64,000 nt of DNA from a virus (Duplodnaviria > Caudoviricetes). Of this stretch, positions 2,689-36,181 are shown in pieces; positions within the stretch are counted from its first letter, which is position 1, and each line of letters opens with the position of its first letter. A program made the translations under genes and the position numbers. Under the pieces are notes generated by a model. It did not search any database and was not told the DNA's origin. It saw only the letters and a program-made list of their open reading frames with translations. The DNA is taken from IMG/VR virus record IMGVR_UViG_3300029267_004155, one strand, 5' to 3'.

Positions 2689-2762
2689 GGTTCCGTAGCT
2701 TAGAGGTAGAGCGGGCGGCTCGGACCGCGTGGCCGCAGGTTCGAGCCCTGCCGGGACCTCCA
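2689..2762 (+). tRNA. atypical tRNA-like gene (6-nt anticodon loop)
   Basis: Intact acceptor, D and T arms plus CCA; anticodon arm GCGG-CTCGGA-CCGC. Confidence 0.65.
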
Positions 2763-3289: not shown

Positions 3290-4732
3290 ATGAAGAGGGA
3301 AGAGACGATTCGGAAGCTGTACGAGTGCGTTCAGACGCGTCCGCGTCCGGAGGATGTTGCCGAGGTCGTGCTGGAGGCATTGCTTCCGCGGCTGTCGCTG
3401 GCCCAGAGGAACGTCTTGAAGCAGGCGACCAGGATCTCGACGAGGAGCCACCTCCTGGGCTACTCGTCCATGGCCGCGGACTTCCATCGCCCGACGGGCA
3501 TGGAGAAGCCGGTCAAGGTGGCGTCCGAGCTCTTCTCCGTTCCGATGCTGTCGGTGGAGGAGTGCCTCGACCCGGAGAGGGTGGAGGTCTTCGTCCAGGG
3601 CGTGTCGTCGGCCATCGGCAAGAGCTACGGGCAGTCCGACTTCCTGAAGCACCGGATGAACCGGGAGCAGCGGGCGCAGGCGGGCCTCGACATGGGGCAC
3701 CGCGCCTACAACAAGCGCTTCAGGCTCCTGGGCCGGATGGAGTCCAAGCTCCTGAGGATGGTCCGCGAGCGGAAGAAGTACGTCCTGACCCGGATCGGCA
3801 AGAGCGGCTTCGCCGTGGAGATCGACTTCGACGACTTCTCCGCCGACCTGGGCACGGCCTGCTTCGTGGCGTACATGAGCGCGAGGATGAGCCTTCGGAG
3901 CACCTTCACGAACGACTCCCAGGTTCGGGCCTTCGACGTGGTGGCCAAGATGCTGTACGACCGCCTGACCAAGTCCAACACGGCCAGGTGGGACGTCGTG
4001 GCCGCCGTCTATCCGGTGGACAGGGTCCTGAGGCTCCTGACGGACTACCAGAAGGGCGCCATGCTCGCGAGGGCGTGGGGTCTCCTGGAGGACGCGTGCG
4101 ACCTTCTCACGGAGGTCTGGGAGGGTTCCGGCGGCGGCATCGACCTGGAGAGGATGGTGGTGCGGCGCGGGTGCGACTCGTCGACGTGGAACCAGTCGGC
4201 CGGCGGGTGGAACAAGGCCCGGGACCACTGGGTGTCGATGCTTCACGCCATGGGCATGGGCTCCATGCTTGAGGCCCTGTGCCCGGGCAAGGTCATGAGG
4301 CTGATGGCGGCGGACGTGGTCCGTTGGCACCTGGCCTCGGGCGGCGACGTCCATCCGGGGACCAAGGTGTGGGCTGAGCTTCCGTACCCGTGGGACGTCG
4401 TCGCGGGCAAGGAGCGGTGCACGAAGGAGATGGTGGTGGCCGCGTGCGAGAGGCACGGCGTCGAGCCGGCGTCCTGGGTCGGGCCGAGGAGGCGTGCCCG
4501 GGCCGTGGAGTTCACGCCGACCCCCGAGCTGGTGCACGGCGTCGCCGTGTCGAGCCCGGGACTGGCTCTCGCCCTGCGGAGGGCCGGGGTCTTCTCGGCC
4601 AAGGCCCTCAGGGCCGAGCATCTCCCGGCCGGCGGCTTCCATGTCGACAGGGACGGCGACGGCTTCGCGCTCGGGGCGACCGACGCGAATTCTCACGGGT
4701 CGGGCCGGAAGGTCCGGGCCGCGGGCGTATAG
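3290..4732 (+). CDS. hypothetical protein (480 aa)
   Basis: AGGAGG RBS, GC3-biased codon use. Confidence 0.85.
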   Translation: MKREETIRKLYECVQTRPRPEDVAEVVLEALLPRLSLAQRNVLKQATRISTRSHLLGYSSMAADFHRPTGMEKPVKVASELFSVPMLSVEECLDPERVEVFVQGVSSAIGKSYGQSDFLKHRMNREQRAQAGLDMGHRAYNKRFRLLGRMESKLLRMVRERKKYVLTRIGKSGFAVEIDFDDFSADLGTACFVAYMSARMSLRSTFTNDSQVRAFDVVAKMLYDRLTKSNTARWDVVAAVYPVDRVLRLLTDYQKGAMLARAWGLLEDACDLLTEVWEGSGGGIDLERMVVRRGCDSSTWNQSAGGWNKARDHWVSMLHAMGMGSMLEALCPGKVMRLMAADVVRWHLASGGDVHPGTKVWAELPYPWDVVAGKERCTKEMVVAACERHGVEPASWVGPRRRARAVEFTPTPELVHGVAVSSPGLALALRRAGVFSAKALRAEHLPAGGFHVDRDGDGFALGATDANSHGSGRKVRAAGV

Positions 4733-4745
4733 TAGGAGTGGATGC

Positions 4746-4822
4746 AGGTGTGTAGCTCAGTGGTAGAGCGTCCCGGCTCTTTTTCCGGGAGGACGCAGGT
4801 TCGAGCCCTGCCTCACCTGCCA
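4746..4822 (+). tRNA. atypical tRNA-like gene, copy A (8-nt pyrimidine anticodon loop)
   Basis: Normal D/T arms and CCA; TCCCGG-CTCTTTTT-CCGGGA. Confidence 0.7.
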
Positions 4823-4829
4823 ATCTTGT

Positions 4830-4907
4830 CTCGACGTAGCTCAGTGGTAGAGCGTCCCGGCTCTTTTTCCGGGAGGACGCAGGTTCGAGCCCTGTCGTTC
4901 GAGGCCA
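4830..4907 (+). tRNA. atypical tRNA-like gene, copy B
   Basis: 59-bp core identical to copy A (4752-4810 = 4836-4894); different, bulged acceptor stem; CCA. Confidence 0.65.
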
Positions 4908-5015
4908 TTTGGTTTTCGACCCCTGTCGGTTCGACTCCGACGTCCGGCTCCTATACTAGTTGCACGGGAGGCGGCCACACCGGTTGGAAGGGTGGGCCCG
5001 GGGGTCTTTCTTGAC

Positions 5016-5085
5016 GTCCCCGGCTCAATGGAGAGCTGGGCACTTGTGGCGCCCAGACGCCAGTTCGATTCTGGCAGGGGCTCCA
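5016..5085 (+). pseudogene. degenerate tRNA, possibly Thr(TGT)-like
   Basis: GCTC/GAGC D arm, GCCAG-TTCGATT-CTGGC T arm, TCCA end; imperfect acceptor and anticodon stems. Confidence 0.5.
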
Positions 5086-5258
5086 TCCTCCGTTCCGCGT
5101 CCCTGGTCCGAGCCCGAGGGCAGGCCGCGTCTTTCTTCTCCTCCTTGGCGGCGTATAATCCCATGACGAATCATGGAGGGCGCTGACGACGTAGAATGGG
5201 ATGGAGAGCTTTGCGGACTGGTGGCGGTAGCCAGAGAGCGAGAACAAGGAGATGCGAG

Positions 5259-5474
5259 ATGATCTATCGGGGCAAATGGTTCACGGTGAGGGTCGAGGAG
5301 CTGGCGGAGGTTGGCGTCTCGACGTCGCAGGGGAACAAGGGTGAGGTCGTGCGCGGGCTGCACGTGACGCACAGGTCGGGGACGCAGAACCGGACGTCTT
5401 ACGCCGACGAGGCGGAGCTCATGAGGGACTACGAGGGGCTCGCCGCGGCCATGGAGAAGGTGGACGACAAGTAG
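5259..5474 (+). CDS. hypothetical protein
   Basis: AAGGAG RBS. Confidence 0.65.
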   Translation: MIYRGKWFTVRVEELAEVGVSTSQGNKGEVVRGLHVTHRSGTQNRTSYADEAELMRDYEGLAAAMEKVDDK

Positions 5475-8030: not shown

Positions 8031-10172
8031 ATGCCAGTTGGATACTACAGCAAGGAACAGGCGCAGGACGCGGTGGTCGCTGCCGGGCTCGGCGCGGCCG
8101 GACTTGACGGTGTCAGGGTTGTTTGGCACGACGAGAAGATCGTTCCCAACGCCGATCCCGACAAGGGCGTCGTCAACCTTCCCCGCCTCGCTTGCGCCGA
8201 GGGGTTCACCCAGGAGGAGCTGACCGTCCTCCGGGGCAACACCGACCACGAGATCGGCCACTGCAAGGAGTCCGTCGGGGTTTCCAGGCGCCAGTGGCCC
8301 AAGGGTCCCCTCTTCGGAATTTGGAACGCGATCGAGGATCGCCGCATGGAGCGCGCCTTCTCGAAGGAGTGGCCCGGCATCCGGTCCACCTTCCGCGACG
8401 CCCTCGGCATCGCCAACAGGAAGATCGGCGGCAACATCCTCGACGGCAAGGAGTATCCTCCACTGTGGGAGGCGCTCGCGGCCATGAGCTTCCAGTCCGA
8501 GGGCGAGGCTCCGACGTGGAAGCTCACCGACAAGGCCGACCACTACTACCAGGCCGGATATGCCACCTTCTCCGAGTGGCGCGAGTGCGAGACGGCCAGG
8601 GACGCCCTGGACCTCGCCAAGCGCCTCCACGCCGTTCTCAATCAGGCCAACAAGGACTGGCAGGAGAAGCAGGACGACGGTCAGGGCCAGGGCTCTGGCG
8701 ACGGCGAGGACGAACGGGACGGGCAGGACGGGCAGCCGGGCGAGAAGAAGTCCGACGACAGCGACGGCGAGGGCGGCCAGGATGCCGGTGGCCAGGATGC
8801 AGGGGAGCCTGCTGGAGAGTCCGACGAGGAAGGTGACAAGGACGCCGGCGACGGTTCTGGTGCTGGCGGCTCGAAAGAGCTTGATGACGATGGTGACGAC
8901 TCCGGCGACTCCGAAGACGGGCAGTCTGGCGGGGGAGGTTCGGACGATGGTGACGACTCCGGCGACTCCGAAGACGGGCAGTCTGGCGGGGGAGGTTCGG
9001 ACGATGACGGTGACGGACAGGGCGATGGAGCCTCCGGGGGCGGCGAGCCGGACGAGGGCGGCGAGCCGGACCGGCACGACGGGGCCGAGGGTCATGGTGG
9101 CGGCGGCCGGGGGCCCGGTGGTGGCCACAGGGACGAACTGCCGGACGACGAGGACGTCGACAGGGGCTTGACGCCCGAGGACGTCGAGAGGGCCATTGCC
9201 GAGGACATGGACGGGGACAACCCCATCGACCTCGTCAAGGGCGAGATCGTCGTGGAGGCGATGGAGCGAGTCGAGAGGGACGCGTGGAGCTCGGGCGCCA
9301 GTCCGTACACGGCCCTCAGGCACACTGATGAGCACACGGTCCCGGCTGGCGACAGGGACGAGTTCATGGCTCTCAGGAAGAGTATCCAGACTTCCGTCTT
9401 CGCGCTGACCCGGATGCTGGAGCAGGCCCTCAGGGCCATGGCCAGCTGTCGCAGGTTGCGAGGCAAGCGGTCGGGCCGGCTGGACGCCACCCGGCTGGTC
9501 CACGTGGCCAAGAGCCTCTCCAGGGACGTCTTCGAGCGCAAGCGCCTCGGGTCCAAGCTGGACACGGCGGTCGTCCTGGTCATCGACGAGAGCGGCTCCA
9601 TGTGGGCCTGCAGGGAGATAGGCAAGGTCGTGGCGGCCATGGGCGAGGCCATGTCGGCCTGCAACATCCCCTTCGAGATAGTGGGGGCGACCACCAAGTA
9701 CAGTGGCGGGGCCAGGAGGTGTCCGTGCCTGGACGGCTTCACCCGGACCAACCCCGTGGTCTACATGCACTACAAGAGCTTCGGCGAGCGGTGGGCCGGC
9801 GTGGCTCACAGGATTGTCGAGATAGCGGCCCGCAAGCACCACATCGACGGCGAGGTCGTGGAGCACGGGGCTGCCCGGCTGCTGGGGCGCCGGGAGTCCC
9901 GCAAGGTCGTCATCAGCCTCTCGGACGGCGACCCCTGCGGCGGGCAGGGCAACGACCGGGAGCTGGCGAGCAACCTGGTCCGCGTCTGCAAGCGGGCCCG
10001 GGAGGCGGGCGTCGAGGTCTACAGCCTGAGCATCGACACGACGACTCCGGCTCGCTACTACGGCAAAGAGAACAGCGTGGTCATGAAGAAGGGCGACGAC
10101 TTCGGCAAGGAGTTCGCCAGGAACTTCGTCAAGATACTCACCGACGGGCGGTTGAAGGTCGCCGGGGTCTAA
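8031..10172 (+). CDS. CobT/NorD-like VWA-domain protein
   Basis: DHEIGH...AIEDRRME N-domain, acidic Gly/Asp linker, MIDAS DESGS and SDG motifs. Confidence 0.85.
8886..9006 (+). repeat. 57-bp in-frame tandem duplication in the acidic linker
   Basis: Unit GACGATGGTGACGAC...GGAGGTTCG twice, plus a partial third copy. Confidence 0.9.
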
Positions 10173-11501: not shown

Positions 11502-12716
11502 ATGGCAACGAAGGCGAACGAGAAGCAAGTGGCGGACAAGGTCGAGCAGCTGCTCGGCACCGAGGTCCGCATCGAGGTCAAGGCGGACGATCCTTCCGTC
11601 GTGGACATCGCCAAGGACCTGCGCCTGGCGCGGGTGCTCCTGGCGTTGACGACCAGGGGCATCGCGATCGAGCGGGCCGGCAACGTCATGACCATCTTCC
11701 GCATCGGGGCCGCGCGGCCGGCCCAGGCGGGGCCGCCCAAGGGTGTCGTGGTGCCCGATCCTGACAGGCCGGAGGCCACCGCCACCCCGAAGGTGGACCG
11801 GAGCCGTCACAGCTCCCGCCCGTACGCCAAGGAGAAGGACGTGCTCGACGTGGTCACGGACGACGCGAGCCACGTCCTCATGTTCGTCGGGCCCGCGGGC
11901 TGCGGCAAGACCTTCGAGGCTCGCCGCATCGCCGAGCTGACGGGACGCAAGTTCTACCGCCTCCAGTGCCATGGCGACATGACCTCCGCCGACCTCTTCG
12001 GCGAGAAGACCGTCGAGGTCGACGAGAAGACCGGCCAGTCGGTCGTCGTCTACAAGCCGGGCACCGTGGTCCAGGCCTGGCAGGAGGGGCTCGACGAGGA
12101 CGGCAACGAGACCGGCCAGGCGGCGCTTCTCCTGATCGACGAGTGGGCGGCCATGCCGACCCACCTGTTCATCGCTCTCAACGCCTCCCTGGAGTCGGAC
12201 GACCCCCGGCGCAGGCTGGTGGTCGAGGCTGACGGCGGCAGGCTCATCCGGAGCCACAGCGGCCTCCGCATCATCCTCACGAGCAACCTGGCGGGGCGCG
12301 GGGCCTCGACCATGGGCGAGGCCCTTCACACGGCCCAGGCGGACGCTCAGGACATCTCGGGCATCAACCGGGTGGCTGCCACTTTCCGCTTCGGCTATGA
12401 CAGGAAGCTGGAGAAGGGCATTCTCATGGAGAAGGTGGGCGACGACAGGGTGGTCCGGGACATCCTGCGCCTCCGCGACCAGATCAGGGCCCAAATCAAG
12501 ACCGAGCGCCTGCGGGAGCCTTTCGGCACCCGGCACTTGATCGCCATAGCGAACCTCTATCGCATCTGGGGCGACCTCGGGAAGGCGCTCTACCTGTCCA
12601 TCATGACGGGCATGGCGCCCGATGAGCGGGCGGTCGTCAACGAGACCGCCAAGAACGTCCTCGACCGCGACCTCATGAAGGAGATCGAGGACGACGAGGA
12701 CATCGACTACATGTGA
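11502..12716 (+). CDS. CobS/CbbQ-like MoxR AAA+ ATPase
   Basis: Walker A GPAGCGKT, Walker B LLIDE, sensor TSN. Confidence 0.88.
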   Translation: MATKANEKQVADKVEQLLGTEVRIEVKADDPSVVDIAKDLRLARVLLALTTRGIAIERAGNVMTIFRIGAARPAQAGPPKGVVVPDPDRPEATATPKVDRSRHSSRPYAKEKDVLDVVTDDASHVLMFVGPAGCGKTFEARRIAELTGRKFYRLQCHGDMTSADLFGEKTVEVDEKTGQSVVVYKPGTVVQAWQEGLDEDGNETGQAALLLIDEWAAMPTHLFIALNASLESDDPRRRLVVEADGGRLIRSHSGLRIILTSNLAGRGASTMGEALHTAQADAQDISGINRVAATFRFGYDRKLEKGILMEKVGDDRVVRDILRLRDQIRAQIKTERLREPFGTRHLIAIANLYRIWGDLGKALYLSIMTGMAPDERAVVNETAKNVLDRDLMKEIEDDEDIDYM

Positions 12717-13249: not shown

Positions 13250-13290
13250 TCCTTTCTTTTGATCTTTCCTGACTTTTTTTGCTCCTCCGC

Positions 13291-13328
13291 GTGGAAAACC
13301 TGCCTCTTTTGGCAATATGGGGGTAGAG
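13291..13328 (+). promoter_or_regulatory. repeated bipartite motif, copy 4
   Basis: GTGGAAAA-N12-GGCAATATGGGGGTAGAG. Confidence 0.8.
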
Positions 13329-13366
13329 CGTGCGATGAGAACGGCCAACCAAGGAGGACCGACAAG

Positions 13367-14503
13367 ATGACAGAGACCATCAACGAAGGCACGGGCGCGG
13401 GGCTGGGGGTCAACGTCTGGTACACGGTGCCGCAGGGCATCGTCATTCCGGCGGAGGATGCCCAGGCTGCCGCGGTGAGAAACGGCTTCCAGGAATGCGA
13501 CTTCCCGGTGCCGAGCCCGCGGACCGAGGTGTCCCGCGCGGCGCACTCCCTGCAGGATCGCCGGCACAAGAGCAACCGGCGCGTGACCGAGAAGACCAAG
13601 GACAACGACCGCTACGTGGTCTATGGCATCCTCGACCAGACCCGCAAGGGCGACGAGGAGGTCGCGTTCGAGCAGGGCACGACGGTCCGCTTCGACAAGG
13701 AGACCGGACGGGTGGACGCGGAAGGCCCGCTTGCCGAGGACTTCCAGAAGCGCTACAACAAGGTCAAGGGCGCGGTCACGGATGACGACGTCCGCATCTT
13801 CCTGCGCCGGGTGGTCGGCATGTGCTTCGGGGTTCCGAAGCGCCCGACGGGCGGCATCTGGTTCGTCCCCGGCCACGTGGCGACCATCGTCGAGAACGCG
13901 CAGGCCGTACTGGACGAGCTGAAGACTGGGGCCAAGCTCTACCTCGAAGGCGTCGTGAACGGCGTCAGGGAGCGGGAGAACGTCTGGGAGTCGGTCGAGG
14001 GCGAGATCGAGAAGAGGATCGAGGAGACCCTCCGGGCGGTCGAGCGCATCGGCAAGCGGGCGGCCGGCCTCGTTGACCACGAGGCGACGATCGCCGGGCT
14101 TGACGAGCTCATGAAGGTGTACTCCAACATCCTGGGCGAGGAGGCCCGGCACGAGGCGCTCGCGGAGAAGCTGTCGGACGCGGCGCAGACGGTCGCGGCC
14201 AAGATGGCTGCCATGCAGGCCACTCGGATGGTCCGCAAGGCCAAGGGTCGCAAGAAGGGCGGTTCGACCGCGTCGGGCGGATACGGGACTCAGGTCGTCG
14301 AGGCCGTCAAGGGGGTCCTGGGGGCGGCTGGCGTCCCGCTCCACTATCGGGACATCGCCGACAAGGCGTTCGAGGCGGGCCTGGCCAAGCGTGGCCGCGA
14401 CCCCCACAAGACCGTGGCGTCGTGGATCGCCGAGGCTGGCCGGGACGGGGCCGACAGCCCCTTCGTCCGGGCGGGGCGCGGGACCTACACCCTCGCCTCC
14501 TGA
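13367..14503 (+). CDS. protein with C-terminal HARE-HTH winged helix
   Basis: VLGAAGVPLHYRDIAD...PHKTVAS...FVRAGRGTYTL. Confidence 0.75.
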   Translation: MTETINEGTGAGLGVNVWYTVPQGIVIPAEDAQAAAVRNGFQECDFPVPSPRTEVSRAAHSLQDRRHKSNRRVTEKTKDNDRYVVYGILDQTRKGDEEVAFEQGTTVRFDKETGRVDAEGPLAEDFQKRYNKVKGAVTDDDVRIFLRRVVGMCFGVPKRPTGGIWFVPGHVATIVENAQAVLDELKTGAKLYLEGVVNGVRERENVWESVEGEIEKRIEETLRAVERIGKRAAGLVDHEATIAGLDELMKVYSNILGEEARHEALAEKLSDAAQTVAAKMAAMQATRMVRKAKGRKKGGSTASGGYGTQVVEAVKGVLGAAGVPLHYRDIADKAFEAGLAKRGRDPHKTVASWIAEAGRDGADSPFVRAGRGTYTLAS

Positions 14504-14543: not shown

Positions 14544-14583
14544 TGTTCAAGGCGTATAATGGGAAAAGAAGGAGGATCATGAC

Positions 14584-16503
14584 ATGGGCGTCAACGAACG
14601 GATAAGAGAGCTCGAAGGGCTCGTGCGGTACCACTCCGACATCTACTTCAACGAGGCGAAGCAGGAGATCACGGACGCCGAGTACGACGAGCTGGTGGCC
14701 GAGCTGACGGAGCTCGACCCGGAGTCCCCGGCGCTGGTGGAGGTCGGCTCGGTGCCGTCCTACGGGCGCAAGGTGAAGCACAGCTCGACCATGGGCTCGC
14801 TGAAGAAGGCGACGACCGTGGACGAGGTGATGGCGTGGCACGAGGCCTGCGGGGGTGGCGACATCGTCCTGATGCCGAAGATGGACGGCCTGGCCATAAG
14901 GCTGAACTACAGGAGCGGGCGGTTCGTCCAGGCCGCGACACGGGGCGACGGGGAGATCGGCCAGGACGTGACCGACAACGCCAGGGGCGTCGACGGGGTG
15001 CGCGAGGAGATCGAGGACAAGGGGCCCGTCGAGATGCGGGGCGAGGTCTACATGCCGAAGGACGTCTTCCGGGGTTTCCAGGAGACCGGCTCCATCGACT
15101 TCGCCAACCCGAGGAACGCGGCGGCCGGCAGCCTGTGCGCCAAGGACCCGAAGGTGACGGCGAGCCGCGGGCTCTGCTTCCGGTGCTACGAGATCACGGG
15201 AGTCCACGGCCTGGAGTCGGAGACGGCCCGGCACGTCTACGCGAAGAACGAGCTCGGCGTGCCGTACGTGTCCATGAAGAGGTTCCATGACGGGCCGAAC
15301 CTGAGGGCCGAGCTGGAGGCCGAGCTTCACGACTGCGAGTTCTCCAAGCGCCAGAAGATGAACTTCGAGATCGACGGCATGGTGCTGGCGATCGGAGACC
15401 TGGAGACGCAGGAGGAGCTCGGGTGGTCGGGGCGGCGCCCCAATGGGAAGATAGCCTACAAGTTCCGCCCCGAGCAGAAGGTCGCCGTCGTGCGCAGCGT
15501 GGATTGGCAGGTGGGCAGGACCGGGCGCATGACGCCCATGGCGAGGATCGAGCCCACGGCCCTGTCCGGGAGCGTGGTCAAGAACGTGACGCTCCACAAC
15601 CAGAAGTTCCTGGAGGAGCTGGGGCTCTGCGCCGGCTGCCGGGTGCTGGTCCAGAAGGCCGGCGACATCATCCCGCAGGTGGTGCGGAAGACGGACGGGC
15701 CGGAGGGCGCCGCGATTCCGAGGCCGGGGGTCTGCCCGTCCTGCGGGAGCAAGCTGAGGTTCGACGACGTGAACCTCTGGTGCGACTCCGTCTCGTGCCC
15801 GGCGAAGCTGGAGGAGAGGGTGCTCCACTACCTGAGGCGCATGGACGTCCTCGGGGTGGGGCCGGCGCTCGTCTCGGCTCTCTGTCGGAAAGGCCTCGTC
15901 AAGAGGCTGCCGGACTTGTACTCCATCCCCTTCTCGGGGCTTCAGGAGGCGGCCGGGGGGACGCAGGCGGCGAGGAACGCCATGGAGGCGATCCTGGGCC
16001 GGAACGAGGTCCCGCTGCACCAGTTCCTTTCCGCTCTCGGGGTTGGCGGGCTCGGGCGCACGACGTCCAGGGCGGTGGCGAAGGAGTACCGGTCCCTCTC
16101 CAAGATCGTGGCGTGTCCGGACCTTCCCCTCATGGTTGGCCGGCTGGTCGGGCTGGACGGGATCGGGGAGACGACGGCCGGCTCCATCGCGCTCGGGCTG
16201 GCGGAGATCGCGAAGGAGGTCGAGGAGCTGGCCGGGATCATAGAGGTGCAGGACGTGGCCGAGGCCGAGGGGCCTCTGGTCGGACGGAGCTTCTGTCTGA
16301 CCGGCGCCATGAGTCGGCCGAGGAAGGCGATAGCCGCGGACATCGAGGCCGCGGGCGGCGAGGTGAGGTCGAGTGTCGGGAAGGGATTGGACTTCCTGGT
16401 TCAGGCTGACGCGTCCAGCACGTCAGGCAAGACGAAGAAGGCAGTGGCCAACGGGACCGCCATCATCGGCGAGGACGAGCTGGTCGAGATGATGCGGGGC
16501 TGA
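14584..16503 (+). CDS. ligA: NAD-dependent DNA ligase
   Basis: KMDG adenylation motif, TRGDG, RGE, ANPRNAAAGS, OB fold, Zn finger, HhH, BRCT. Confidence 0.97.
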   Translation: MGVNERIRELEGLVRYHSDIYFNEAKQEITDAEYDELVAELTELDPESPALVEVGSVPSYGRKVKHSSTMGSLKKATTVDEVMAWHEACGGGDIVLMPKMDGLAIRLNYRSGRFVQAATRGDGEIGQDVTDNARGVDGVREEIEDKGPVEMRGEVYMPKDVFRGFQETGSIDFANPRNAAAGSLCAKDPKVTASRGLCFRCYEITGVHGLESETARHVYAKNELGVPYVSMKRFHDGPNLRAELEAELHDCEFSKRQKMNFEIDGMVLAIGDLETQEELGWSGRRPNGKIAYKFRPEQKVAVVRSVDWQVGRTGRMTPMARIEPTALSGSVVKNVTLHNQKFLEELGLCAGCRVLVQKAGDIIPQVVRKTDGPEGAAIPRPGVCPSCGSKLRFDDVNLWCDSVSCPAKLEERVLHYLRRMDVLGVGPALVSALCRKGLVKRLPDLYSIPFSGLQEAAGGTQAARNAMEAILGRNEVPLHQFLSALGVGGLGRTTSRAVAKEYRSLSKIVACPDLPLMVGRLVGLDGIGETTAGSIALGLAEIAKEVEELAGIIEVQDVAEAEGPLVGRSFCLTGAMSRPRKAIAADIEAAGGEVRSSVGKGLDFLVQADASSTSGKTKKAVANGTAIIGEDELVEMMRG

Positions 16504-17420: not shown

Positions 17421-17600
17421 GCTTTATCTCGCCCTGGGGCGCTATCTGGTGGTGAAAAGGGCGGAAGGTGGAGAAGTCCGGACTTTCAAGCGCCCCGACG
17501 GGCGTATAATGGCAGTGAGGTGGTGTCCGGACCCGAAGGCGGGCGACCGACCCACCCTGGGGCAGTTTTGCCAGGCCTACGGGCTGGAGCGGGAGAGGTG

Positions 17601-18726: not shown

Positions 18727-19248
18727 ATGGCTAGGCAGATAGAGGCGTCGGAGGCGCTCGTGGCGGTCGCGGACGAGGCTGCGCGGGTGAACAACAGGCT
18801 GACCGAGCTGACGGCCCAGGACAAGGGCTACAAGCTCAAGATCGTCGAGGGCGTCAAGGGGATGTTCGAGAAGGGGGAGAAGTCCGTCGTCGTCCGGGGG
18901 ACGGAGGCCGACGTGATGGTGACCGCCTCCGACAAGGTGACGATCCTGGTCGGCGAGCCGGTCTTCGAGGAGCTTGTCAGGCCGGCCATCGACTCGGGCC
19001 TCCTGGACCTGGTCGACGCGAAGAGGAGGCTCGTCGTGGCCCCGGGGGACGTGCAGAGGGCCGCGGACGCCCTGGAGGCTGCCGGCATCGGGGCGAGCAT
19101 CGAGGTGGCCTACTCCGCCAAGGCGGCGGACCTGGACGGCCCGGGGTCCAGGACCGGCGAGGTGGAGCATGACAAGGCTGCCGAGGCGCTGGACAGGGTG
19201 GTGAGGACGAGCCGGGACTACAGGGTCTCGTTCAAGTGGAGGGGCTGA
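18727..19248 (+). CDS. hypothetical protein
   Basis: AAGGAG RBS. Confidence 0.75.
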   Translation: MARQIEASEALVAVADEAARVNNRLTELTAQDKGYKLKIVEGVKGMFEKGEKSVVVRGTEADVMVTASDKVTILVGEPVFEELVRPAIDSGLLDLVDAKRRLVVAPGDVQRAADALEAAGIGASIEVAYSAKAADLDGPGSRTGEVEHDKAAEALDRVVRTSRDYRVSFKWRG

Positions 19249-19249
19249 C

Positions 19250-21826
19250 ATGGGGAAAGACAAAGATCAAGAGCAGGACCTCTCGTACGAGGGCTGCTAC
19301 GGGCCGAAGCTGAGCTACTCCGAGCTCGACGACTTCCTGGCCGAGTCGTTCAGCCTGAACTACGAGATCAAGAACGATCGGGACCGGTTCTCCACCTGCG
19401 TGTGGGGTCATTCCGGTGTCGGAAAGTGCATTGCTGGGGAGTCTCTCGTCGTGACTGACGACGGGATGGTGGAGATAGCCGAGTGCTGTGACGGCCTGGG
19501 GGACGACTCCACAAGGGGGGTTGTCGACCTTAGGGTTCACACTCCGAACCGAAGCGACCCGATGCAGCAGGTAGCTTTTGTGTATCATGCCGGTTTGAAG
19601 GATGCCATCGGGATCAGGACGAGCAATGGGAGGGAGATCGTTGGCAGCCTGGAGCATCCGGTGAAGGTGCTGACGGAATCGGGGTTCAAATGGAAGAACC
19701 TGCCCGAACTGGAGATCGGCGATTTTGTCGTTGTCGATTTTGTCAGGGTCGATGCGCCCGACATGGGGCTTCCTTCCCTTGGCGACCTCGGGAGATATTG
19801 CATCCGTGATTTTGTGGTGCCATCGAGGATGACGCCCGACTTGGCCTTCGTGCTCGGGGCTCTCGTTGGGGAGGGGGCACAGGGCTCTCGTTATGTGGTC
19901 AAGTTCTCGCAGCATGAGTCTCGTCCGCTCGGGGACGCCTACTGTCTGAGATTTGAAAAAGTGTTTGGGCTCCGGCCTGTTCGATCTTCCCACAAGGGGG
20001 ATGGCAATTTCGACTACTCTGTGAACAGGACGGCGATCAGGAGGTGGCTGGCCGAGATAGGTCTTGACTATGCGGGAAGCGACGATGTGCGCGTTCCCTA
20101 TTCCGTCATGCGGTCCTCGAAACGTAGCCAGTTGGGGTTTCTGAAGGCGCTCGTGGAGGCCGGGGGCTCCAACGAGTTGCATGGAATCTCGATAGGGTCG
20201 AACTCGAAGAGGATGCTGGAGCAGGTGCAGTTCATGCTTCTGCGTTTCGGCGTGATGGCCTCTCTCAGAAGGAAGACGAAGAAGGCGTGGAGGCTGAACG
20301 TTACCGGAGAGGACGCGAGGGCCTTCAATGAGGTTGTCGGCTTCTCCAGGGCCGCGGGTGAATGGCTTGATCGTTCATCCAATCCGAACAAGGATGGTGT
20401 CCCCTCCTGTTGGGCGTGGGGGTTCCTTCGGGCCATGAAGGATTCGCACCTGGCGAATGGTGGCCATGTCGGGAAGAAGGCCGTCCACTCCTGTCCGCTG
20501 AACAGCATCTATGGCGAGGGCCTCAAGAAGAGGCGAAAGGTGTGGAGCAGGGAGAAGGTTGAGAGGATTGCTGCCGTCCTGGATGCCGCCGACGAGTCGT
20601 ACAGGACGCTTCTGGACTATGTGATGGCTTATAGGTACGAGACAGTGGAGGAGACCTGGGATGCTGGTCGCATTCCCCTCTTCGATCTGTGCGTGCCGAA
20701 TGGTCATGAGTTCGTGGCTAATGGGATCGTGGTTCACAATTCTGGTAAGATCGACCAGTTCCGGAAGGTGCCGGTCAAGTGGGAGGGCGACGACTACGAG
20801 GGCTACGACGTCAGGCATGTCCCCATCGCGCAGTTCGAGGAGATGGGCGACCTGCACGGGCTCCCCGACAAGCACGTCCTGATTCGCAGGAATCACGGCA
20901 GGAACGATGAGCTGTGGGTGCCGATGGAAGTGGCCAAGGGCTACGTCAACGACGGGTGGGACGTCGATCACACGGCGGGCGTCAGGACAATGTACGCGCC
21001 TCCGGACTGGGTGCCTCACCGGCCGGGGCCGTCGATCCTCCACCTGGAGGACTGGAACCGGGCGAGCGGCCGCATCGTCAAGGGGATCATGCAGCTGATG
21101 CAGACCTACGGGATGATGAGCTGGAGGCTGCCGCCTGGCTGCAACATAGTGATGTCGGCCAACCCGGACGAGCAGGAGTACCTCGTGACGACCATCGACA
21201 AGGCGATCCTGACCAGGTTCCGCAGCGCGACCCTGAGGCACGACGCCAAGGAGTGGGCGGTCTGGGCCGACGCCCAGGGGCTCGACCCACGGGGGATCAA
21301 CTACGTCCTGTCCTACCCCGAGATGATGGTCGGGGGCGAGAGGACGATGCCGCGGACGCTGTCGGACTTCTTCCGGTACTCAAAGAGGGTGCCGAGCCTG
21401 AAGGGCAAGGAGTCGGTCGCGCGTCTCAGGAGGATGGCCCAGGCGCTCCTGGACGACGTCACGGTCCATTCCATCCTGACCTTCTTCCAGAGGGACGTGG
21501 AGATGGCCGTCGAGCCGGAGCGGATACTGCTCGGGGACGAGTCGGCCTTCAAGCACGTCAAGGACCTCATGACCAGGAGGGAGAAGAGGATCGACGTGGT
21601 CGGGGTCATCTCCAGCCGGCTCTTCGCCAGGCTGGCCAACCCCGAGTGCGAGCAGACGGCGTCGGCAGTTGCCAACGTCCAGCGCTTCCTGACGCTGCCG
21701 TGCCTGGAGGAGGACATGAGGCATGCCCTCTGCCTCCGCATCAACAGGGTCCGTGACGAGGGGCGCATGGTGCAGTGGATACTCGGGAACGACGAGCTCA
21801 AGGACCTCATCATGAAGGTGGTGTGA
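19250..21826 (+). CDS. MoxR-type AAA+ ATPase containing an intein
   Basis: WGHSGVGK|S Walker A interrupted; LHLED Walker B; SANP; TRF Arg finger. Confidence 0.88.
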   Translation: MGKDKDQEQDLSYEGCYGPKLSYSELDDFLAESFSLNYEIKNDRDRFSTCVWGHSGVGKCIAGESLVVTDDGMVEIAECCDGLGDDSTRGVVDLRVHTPNRSDPMQQVAFVYHAGLKDAIGIRTSNGREIVGSLEHPVKVLTESGFKWKNLPELEIGDFVVVDFVRVDAPDMGLPSLGDLGRYCIRDFVVPSRMTPDLAFVLGALVGEGAQGSRYVVKFSQHESRPLGDAYCLRFEKVFGLRPVRSSHKGDGNFDYSVNRTAIRRWLAEIGLDYAGSDDVRVPYSVMRSSKRSQLGFLKALVEAGGSNELHGISIGSNSKRMLEQVQFMLLRFGVMASLRRKTKKAWRLNVTGEDARAFNEVVGFSRAAGEWLDRSSNPNKDGVPSCWAWGFLRAMKDSHLANGGHVGKKAVHSCPLNSIYGEGLKKRRKVWSREKVERIAAVLDAADESYRTLLDYVMAYRYETVEETWDAGRIPLFDLCVPNGHEFVANGIVVHNSGKIDQFRKVPVKWEGDDYEGYDVRHVPIAQFEEMGDLHGLPDKHVLIRRNHGRNDELWVPMEVAKGYVNDGWDVDHTAGVRTMYAPPDWVPHRPGPSILHLEDWNRASGRIVKGIMQLMQTYGMMSWRLPPGCNIVMSANPDEQEYLVTTIDKAILTRFRSATLRHDAKEWAVWADAQGLDPRGINYVLSYPEMMVGGERTMPRTLSDFFRYSKRVPSLKGKESVARLRRMAQALLDDVTVHSILTFFQRDVEMAVEPERILLGDESAFKHVKDLMTRREKRIDVVGVISSRLFARLANPECEQTASAVANVQRFLTLPCLEEDMRHALCLRINRVRDEGRMVQWILGNDELKDLIMKVV
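19427..20740 (+). mobile_element. intein with LAGLIDADG homing endonuclease (438 aa)
   Basis: Starts CIAGESLV, block B SLEHP, LGALVGEG and LKALVEAGG motifs, ends IVVHN with +1 Ser; lower GC3 than the exteins. Confidence 0.93.
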
Positions 21827-31511: not shown

Positions 31512-31562
31512 CGACGGCAAGAGTGAAGGAGAATGATGGCGGCGTATAATTAGGAGATTGCC

Positions 31563-36078: not shown

Positions 36079-36181
36079 GTTCGAGTGCTTTTGCCGAGTG
36101 ATTCCGGGCGCCCTCTGGAAACCGGCCGGTCGGGGCGTATAATGGGGGGAGGTCGAATAACGGCCTCCTCCGATTTGCGTC

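Follow-up and report, generated by a model that had tools for sequence, protein, structure and literature searches.

Genes and RNAs at the locus

The stretch of DNA described here, referred to as the window, spans 64,000 nucleotides of a virus (Duplodnaviria; Caudoviricetes) found in IMG/VR as record IMGVR_UViG_3300029267_004155. It is rich in GC (about 62–68%), its GC skew is positive all along, and a tRNA gene array lies at its start. Two tandem genes for tRNA-shaped RNAs, named X1 and X2, are found directly behind a protein gene on the same strand, whose product is referred to as the partner protein (Table 1). The partner protein of the window is recorded on a 298,395-bp contig. No close phage relative of the locus DNA was found.

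An earlier reading of these letters (the original prediction) described two cloverleaves ending in CCA, with the loop CUCUUUUU on a 6-bp anticodon stem and a 59-nt core that is the same in both, but with unrelated acceptor stems. This description was confirmed by ARAGORN, by Rfam and by the minimum free energy (MFE) fold, which is a cloverleaf for X1. ARAGORN and Infernal-type scoring had been named as checks, and both came out in favour of the RNAs. X1 and X2 were each called tRNA-??? with a 4-base anticodon ‘cttt’, and the Rfam tRNA model (RF00005) gave 52.9 bits for X1 and 39.9 bits for X2, compared with a threshold of 29. The covariance model of the family described below, R1, gave 79.5 and 70.1 bits, respectively.

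The cores (4752-4810 and 4836-4894) agree at all 59 positions. Their anticodon arm reads UCCCGG / CUCUUUUU / CCGGGA, which makes an 8-nt all-pyrimidine loop, and both RNAs end in G followed by CCA. Each copy had been said to carry a self-complementary acceptor of its own. The stems do pair, but neither is perfect: that of X1 (AGGUGUG/CUCACCU) contains one U.U mismatch at 6-67, and that of X2 (CUCGACG/CGU(U)CGAG) is fully paired only with a 1-nt bulge. When compared with canonical decoding tRNAs, X1 and X2 have the cloverleaf with the conserved D-loop and T-loop nucleotides, but they do not show the usual combination of a 5-bp anticodon stem, a 7-nt loop, U33 and a purine at position 37. Moreover, a U follows any triplet read from position 34. 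The peculiarities of this pair are an inserted U that pairs with A44 and thereby gives the 6-bp stem, the encoded CCA, and acceptor stems with small imperfections. Hardly any other row of the family alignment has the extra U26a:A44 pair.

As an overall interpretation the original prediction was borne out in part. It overlooked both the partner gene immediately upstream and the probable kinship of another tRNA-like gene, at 2689-2762, with the same family.

Table 1. Positions of the RNA genes, the partner gene and the promoter-like motif in the window
Feature	Position	Strand	Description
X1	4746-4822	+	tRNA-shaped RNA, loop CUCUUUUU, 6-bp anticodon stem, GCCA end; ARAGORN, Rfam, R1, MFE cloverleaf
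X2	4829-4907	+	second copy, same 59-nt core, other acceptor stem (1-nt bulge), GCCA end; ARAGORN, Rfam, R1
Partner protein gene	3290-4732	+	480 aa, isoelectric point (pI) 9.4, nearly all-helical; intact open reading frame ending 14 nt before X1
Probable third family member	2689-2762	+	6-nt loop CUCGGA, CGG/CCG stem base, family T arm, UCCA end
Promoter-like motif GGCGTATAGT	4724-4733	+	13 nt upstream of X1, overlaps stop codon of upstream open reading frame
GCGTATART sites	2190-2198, 4725-4733, 5151-5159, 14552-14560, 17502-17510, 31542-31550, 36135-36143	+	motif scan

Linkage of the protein and RNA genes

A pattern scan of IMG/VR, in which a D arm, the loop CTCTTTTT and a T arm were combined, matched one unrelated phage contig of 113 kb and 37% GC. 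On this contig two tRNA-??? genes with 8-nt loops (CUCUUGGU and CUCUUUUU) lie directly after an open reading frame (ORF) of 456 aa, and the window ORF preceding X1 is 45% identical to it over 461 aa. In total, 176 loci with the protein gene were collected from 16 viral contigs, 80 species genomes and 80 metagenome loci, and the window brings the set to 177. The viral loci derive from the pattern scan (L001) and from an alignment-based protein search (L002-L016), L005 being the same contig as L001. A single-sequence protein search of viral contigs gave no match, whereas the alignment-based search did find carriers.

In 164 of the 177 loci ARAGORN called between one and three tRNA-shaped genes on the strand of the protein gene and no more than a few hundred bases away from it, on its downstream side in 151 and on its upstream side in 13. 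Mostly there are two per locus, and a tandem pair is found in 104 of the 164. The covariance model added tRNA-like genes in seven of the 13 remaining loci. In five of the last six the gene lies at or close to the contig end, with little or no space left for RNA genes; the other (L172) is roomy and gave no match. In bacteria the tRNA-like genes lie 15–130 nt past the stop codon on the same strand, and a T-run is often found behind the last of them. The window has both parts of this arrangement. A homologue of the protein is encoded beside the RNAs on the same strand, and X1 carries the RNA signature of the family, consisting of GUAGCUCAGUGGUAGAGC in the D arm, CGG and CCG on either side of an anticodon loop that begins with CUC, the variable loop (U)GGAC, and GCAGGUUCGAGCCCUGC in the T arm (X1 and X2 are rows 1-2 of the family alignment).

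A relative of the partner protein is present in 375 species. Carriers of the module include Chryseobacterium, Tenacibaculum, Kordia, Streptomyces, Ktedonobacter, Minicystis, Planctomycetota, Acidobacteriota, Longimicrobium, Deinococcus, and cyanobacteria. Most carriers are bacteria and not phages, and seven large plasmids have the module as well. In phages the modules lie inside tRNA gene arrays; no cultured phage in INPHARED encodes the partner protein. Within genera the distribution is patchy, with the module in 1 of 81 genomes from the genus of one carrier (G003) and in 9 of 151 from that of another (G005).

For genome scans the signature pattern was used in place of R1. In three large genomes the RNA signature was found to be confined to the module locus. 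Across 151 Streptomyces genomes it was present in eight of the nine that encode the protein (beside the gene in seven) and, as a bona fide match, in none of the 142 that do not. Five other pattern matches in Streptomyces lay outside any tRNA context and were no commoner than those of reversed-pattern controls. An all-against-all BLAST of 934 neighbouring ORFs revealed no conserved neighbour gene, and the bacterial neighbours inspected are unrelated, ordinary metabolic enzymes. The module is a stand-alone, self-contained unit of protein and RNA, which is found in hundreds of bacterial species from many phyla, on some large plasmids and in huge phages.

Conserved and variable parts of the RNAs

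The family alignment comprises 147 distinct members. The D-arm, variable-loop and T-arm elements of the signature are near-invariant among them, the CGG/CCG base of the anticodon stem is invariant, and the loop starts with CUC in 141. Stem cells are paired in 98.7% of cases, and compensatory (double) changes are seen in 19 of the 21 pairs. The covariation score is 0.689, compared with 0.186 in shuffles and at most 0.14 with slid partners, and every acceptor pair takes four to six pair types. These figures support the earlier view that the RNAs are tRNA mimics and not simple decay products, and they show the mimics to be under selection.

The remainder of the anticodon loop is variable. Loops of 6 nt (n=4), 7 nt (n=75), 8 nt (n=60) and 9 nt (n=8) occur, and what follows CUC varies in sequence and length even inside one genus. 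A recurrent form has a GGA end after a spacer of 0–3 nt, and a purine is found at position 37 only in 59 of the 75 seven-nt loops. Conservation of the loop in relatives had been proposed as a check. CUCUUUUU does recur in the 37% GC phage contig, but elsewhere the loop varies, and 75 of the 147 members have the normal 7 nt. This variation in sequence and length argues against a conserved 4-base anticodon and against a decoy specific for Lys.

At the acceptor end, too, the family departs from the tRNAs of its own loci: just 15 of its 245 members (6%) encode NCCA, compared with 38 of 58 ordinary tRNAs, and on three phage contigs whose real tRNAs encode CCA the counts for the family are 0/2, 0/3, and 0/2. 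Position 73 is random. A -1:73 pair is present in 78% of members (40% in shuffles) and at least three extra acceptor pairs in 22% (5.5% in shuffles), the acceptor helix often being longer than 7 bp. The free acceptor sequence, random position 73, scarce NCCA, variable loop, and long acceptor helix therefore make a poor fit to tRNAs kept for decoding or charging. The idea that X1 and X2 are non-ribosomal aminoacyl donors, also part of the original prediction, is weakened by the rarity of NCCA and the lack of conservation at position 73.

In loci with two copies the loop lengths tend to agree (25 pairs 8/8, 25 pairs 7/7 and 26 mixed among 7-/8-nt pairs, phylogeny being ignored), and it may be that each protein variant goes with a certain loop length. 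A kissing loop joining the two copies was tested and rejected: the pairing value of true partners, 2.98, is no better than the 3.10 of shuffled ones.

Between X1 and X2 there are no differences in the 59 core nucleotides and about 12 in 14 acceptor positions. Since duplication followed by drift cannot give zero core differences beside some 12 in the acceptor, the two cores appear to have been homogenised by gene conversion confined to the core. A second case is found in a huge phage of high GC (L009; IMGVR_UViG_3300028840_001395, 436 kb), in which two copies at 2310-2473, upstream of the protein gene, have an identical core with the 9-nt loop CUCUUGGGA and differing acceptor stems. This suggests that core-only conversion is recurrent. 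At other loci the copies have the acceptor stem in common and not the anticodon arm.

The partner protein

More than 1000 homologues of the partner protein were found at 45–69% identity, the closest at 57–69%, and the family forms 578 clusters at 50% identity among ~15 billion proteins. Its members are basic (median pI 9.3), contain invariant acidic, His and Cys residues, and are 40–57% identical across phyla. The stretches DSSTWN, GK..MAADV..WH and PTPELVHGV and two Cys belong to the invariant part. The window protein has no match in Pfam, PHROG, NCBIfam, PADLOC, or a PDB sequence profile search, and ten divergent homologues have no Pfam match either. Longer, fused forms of the protein were not found, which is weak evidence.

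The AlphaFold2 (AF2) model is almost entirely helical, with a predicted local distance difference test score (pLDDT) of 86 and a predicted template modelling score (pTM) of 0.80. Foldseek gave no fold match in the PDB (best E 0.3), the wide VIA-align search returned generic designed helical bundles only (best Z 6.2), and a search of the ESM Atlas gave no usable match. In BFVD, two uncharacterised structural homologues were found, A0A3G4ZSE3 from Edafosvirus and A0A5K0U9D9 from Yasminevirus, with E values of 4e-15 and 1e-11, a template modelling score of about 0.6, and 17–18% identity. These two viruses are the only ones in which structural relatives were found. Both belong to the giant-virus group Klosneuvirinae and have large translation gene sets.

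A probable third copy, a promoter-like motif and the surroundings

The tRNA-like gene at 2689-2762 lies within the tRNA array, ~530 nt upstream of the protein gene, and was called by ARAGORN as tRNA-??? with a 2-base anticodon. The same 6-nt loop, CTCGGA, adjoins the protein gene in another locus (L089), and the gene at 2689-2762 shares its T arm with X1 and X2 (repeat family D2). Its R1 score is 67.2 bits; because R1 does not discriminate between family members and ordinary tRNAs, the gene was placed by its loop and stem signature, which marks it as a probable third member of the family, one of the ‘CUC..GGA’ (GGA-ending) type.

The -10-like box noted ahead of X1 in the original prediction is real and not a chance match. 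GCGTATART occurs seven times in the window, always on the + strand, where 0.02 sites are expected. The aligned sites have in common only the invariant core GGCGTATA(A/G)T, and a conserved -35 element is absent from them. The six copies elsewhere lie directly upstream of genes or of a tRNA block, several only 0–25 nt ahead of a start codon, which suggests very short leaders. A generic scan of 4500-5300 for sigma-70 promoters and terminators found nothing, and the promoter argument therefore rests on the phage's own repeated motif. GGCGTATA(A/G)T is probably the promoter motif of this phage.

Further tRNA-like remains were noted on the 3' side of X2, within 4908-5086. An orphan T arm with an acceptor 3' strand lies at ~4924-4951, and an irregular unit at 5009-5086 has a 9-nt loop and scores 30 bits with Rfam over model positions 9-63. 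GACGTCC(C)CGGCTC is present in both, and these two pieces have the look of recombination remnants. An odd ‘tRNA-Ala’ is found at the equivalent position in L001. At 323-395 lies another tRNA-like gene with the loop CUCAUAA and a weak D arm, which scored 44.1 bits with Rfam and 42.7 bits with R1 and was missed by ARAGORN.

Among the protein genes, an ORF inside the tRNA array (1031-2014) has a weak likeness to inosine-uridine nucleoside hydrolases (28 bits, under the Pfam cut-off). A few kb downstream of the module are found a CobT-like vWA protein (8031-10172) and an AAA_5 (MoxR/CobS-like) ATPase (11502-12716), followed by a HARE-HTH protein (13250-14503) and an NAD-dependent DNA ligase (14560-16503). 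An 873-aa ORF at 19205-21826 contains an intein bearing a LAGLIDADG homing endonuclease domain.

Interpretation and alternatives

X1 and X2, together with the partner gene and probably the gene at 2689-2762, are likely to be the phage version of a conserved protein-plus-RNA module in which the RNAs are partners of the protein and not codon readers. What is seen directly is the linkage of the protein and RNA genes, the absence of the signature from genomes without the protein, the cloverleaf kept by compensatory change, and the pattern of invariant and free positions. The RNAs would be transcribed from the phage motif GGCGTATAGT, by read-through from the protein gene, or both, and would then fold into the L-shape. 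The basic helical protein may bind them via the invariant elbow, the variable loop, the last three pairs of the anticodon stem, and C32-U33-C34, so that the variable 3' half of the loop would be left exposed. They could then serve the protein as cofactor, decoy or substrate. The identical 59-nt core would have come to stand on two acceptor stems through gene conversion between the tandem copies.

The weakest step of this scheme concerns the arena, which is most likely a conflict or stress centred on tRNA or translation. This arena is favoured because the phage modules lie in tRNA arrays, because the module is patchy and stand-alone in bacteria, and because of the structural relatives in giant viruses. 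A generic role as decoy or sensor in such a conflict is possible. A bolder and more tentative version is that the pair is a new ribonucleoprotein (RNP) machine unrelated to Ro60 and Y RNA. It would use tRNA mimicry and an exposed, fast-evolving half loop as sensor, bait or remodelling device for the factors whose target is the anticodon loop, such as anticodon nucleases, loop-modifying enzymes or the ribosomal A site, and it would operate in bacteria, plasmids and huge phages, with a diverged form in giant viruses of eukaryotes.

Several observations weigh against the RNAs being partners of the protein. In about half of the family the loop has 7 nt and is perfectly tRNA-like (CUCUUAA, CUCGGGA, CUCUCAC, CUCCAAA), and some members could thus be engaged in real decoding. 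All three copies in this phage end in NCCA like its real tRNAs, so that they could be matured, and even charged, like tRNAs. The mismatch in X1, the bulge in X2 and the nearly unique U26a:A44 pair may be signs of drift in these copies. Ordinary tRNAs reach R1 scores not far below those of family members, and membership is decided by a short signature and by position. Finally, contact between protein and RNA is presumed solely from co-occurrence and conservation.

The module could instead be a toxin-antitoxin-like or immune pair, in which the protein binds or cuts anticodon loops beginning with CUC in cellular or phage tRNAs, while the RNAs, as mimics that resist cleavage, restrain it or serve as bait. 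Its two-part, self-contained build, patchiness within genera and presence on plasmids and in phages are all compatible with this, as are the fast-evolving exposed half loop beside an invariant half and the invariant acidic, His and Cys residues of the protein. Nevertheless, this alternative is unlikely. PADLOC defence models gave no match, PDB fold searches detected no nuclease fold, and the inspected bacterial neighbours are metabolic genes and not defence islands. In addition, the identity of the protein across phyla is unusually high for a toxin or defence protein.

It is rather improbable that X1 and X2 are working tRNAs for special decoding, either by +1 frameshifting (quadruplet CUUU for AAAG) or as odd Lys readers, with the neighbouring protein as their modifying or charging enzyme. 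The +1 frameshift tRNA had been put forward in the original prediction and is now poorly supported, since the loop after CUC varies in content and is 6, 7, 8, or 9 nt long in relatives, even within a genus. An 8-nt loop with U33 is a hallmark of classic frameshift suppressors in the literature; however, in X1 and X2 it is a U and not a purine that follows the anticodon. C is found at position 34 in all members, half of which have loops identical to those of real C34 tRNAs, and the phage modules do lie in tRNA arrays. The NCCA of X1 and X2 also speaks for decoding, but it is lacking in 94% of the family, including in phages whose real tRNA genes encode CCA, and the discriminator is not conserved. 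Many members have an extended acceptor helix, derivation of the core from the phage tRNA-Lys is unsupported, and the modelled protein appears to have neither a synthetase-like nor a known enzyme fold. Moreover, the module is retained by many bacteria, to which frameshifting tRNAs would be harmful.

Free-standing decoys for tRNA-Lys anticodon nucleases of the PrrC or PARIS type, acting independently of the neighbouring protein, were likewise proposed at the outset and are very unlikely. The loop does hold both CUU and UUU, and phage tRNAs with loop changes that evade anticodon nucleases are known (PMC10264068). Such decoys would leave the strict linkage to the protein gene unexplained, most carriers are bacteria and not phages, and relatives show non-Lys loops. 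The body is not Lys-like either. The X1/X2 core is identical to the two phage tRNA-Lys genes at 45/58 and 44/58 positions, which is no closer than to tRNA-Pro (46/58) or tRNA-Thr (44/58), so that derivation from the phage tRNA-Lys is unsupported. Nor does a single insertion account for the difference between the loop and CUCUUAA. The phage already encodes both canonical tRNA-Lys genes.

An equally slim chance is given to cis-acting elements in the 3' untranslated region (3'-UTR), which would process, stabilise or autoregulate the upstream mRNA through RNase P cleavage and a terminator formed by the acceptor stem and U-run. The position of the bacterial copies shortly after the stop codon and the frequent T-run would suit such elements, but the RNAs lie upstream of the gene in 13 loci, mostly of phages, and in the window one probable copy precedes the gene among other tRNAs while X1 has its own promoter motif. 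Neither RNase P nor termination needs an invariant C32-U33-C34 or variable loop.

That X1 and X2 are decaying copies of a duplicated phage tRNA, or a product of assembly, might be suggested by the imperfect acceptors and the missing purine 37, but can be given almost no credence in view of the family-wide covariation and the recurrence of CUCUUUUU after a homologous gene in the 37% GC phage. The assembly duplication that the original prediction had named as a refutation is unlikely because a tandem pair is normal for the family and because the two acceptor stems are not the same, which rules out collapse or expansion of a repeat.

If X1, X2 and the partner protein do form a protein-plus-RNA module, a protein family of at least 375 bacterial species and many huge phages would come with its own tRNA-shaped RNAs, although no Pfam, NCBIfam or PDB entry and no distinct Rfam family corresponds to either part. 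It would be a third natural class of tRNA-mimic RNP, beside Ro60/Y RNA and the predicted pair of Band-7 protein and b7a-tRNA. It would also account for the recurring ‘tRNA-undetermined’ annotations with 6-, 8-, and 9-nt loops, and such genes would cease to be read as natural quadruplet decoders. The position in phage tRNA arrays and the giant-virus relatives point to a new player in the contest over tRNAs and translation. Culturable carriers, namely Kordia algicida OT-1, Chryseobacterium species such as C. jejuense DSM 19299, Ktedonobacter racemifer DSM 44963, and Streptomyces globisporus plasmids, make the module directly testable.

Comparison with known systems

Literature searches for natural tRNAs with 8-nt loops and for tRNA-like RNAs tied to a hypothetical protein brought up no description of the module, and the family is not mentioned in a 2020 review of non-canonical natural tRNAs (PMC7609411) or in a survey of jumbo phages (PMC7824862). 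The pairing of this protein with tRNA-like RNAs is widespread and apparently undescribed.

Enlarged loops on natural tRNA-type molecules are known from yeast mitochondrial tRNA-Thr1, which has 8 nt in its loop. Unlike the present RNAs, tRNA-Thr1 is a single decoder with a fixed anticodon and a normal synthetase, and it has no dedicated protein and no variation in loop length (PMC3113583). The phage tRNAs that evade anticodon nucleases are similar in being phage-encoded, in lying in a tRNA array with an unusual loop, and in a possible role in tRNA conflict; however, they remain decoders with 7-nt loops and without a partner protein (PMC10264068), whereas the present family is mainly bacterial.

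An 8-nt loop on a tRNA-like body is also what is found in +1 frameshift suppressors and engineered quadruplet tRNAs (sufD, SufB2, sufJ). These arose by a one-nucleotide insertion in a defined isoacceptor and keep the purine 3' of the anticodon as well as the identity elements (PMC4238358, PMC9094753). X1 and X2 show neither an isoacceptor body with a single insertion nor, among the 147 relatives, a conserved 4-base anticodon. In contrast to the suppressors, loop content and length are not conserved in this family, and CCA is mostly absent.

Two proposals come nearer. The predicted b7a-tRNA with Band-7 proteins is set apart from the present pair by protein and context. The partner protein here lacks a Band-7/SPFH domain and an RtcB context, and scans of 10 window ORFs and of bacterial neighbours turned up neither Band_7 nor RtcB. 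The YrlA-type Y RNAs that accompany Ro60/Rsr (RF02553) are the other: they too are tRNA-mimicking non-coding RNAs which adjoin one protein gene in bacteria and phages, often in tandem copies, and they work with the RNA-binding protein encoded there. Identity with YrlA was rejected, as the RF02553 model gave 23.4 bits, below its gathering threshold of 69, and the neighbouring protein has no Pfam domain. The partner is without the TROVE and vWA domains of Ro60, its model points to no Ro60-like fold, and neither RtcB nor an RNA-repair gene travels with the module. Furthermore, the RNAs themselves differ from YrlA in that they are complete, unpermuted cloverleaves with an anticodon arm.

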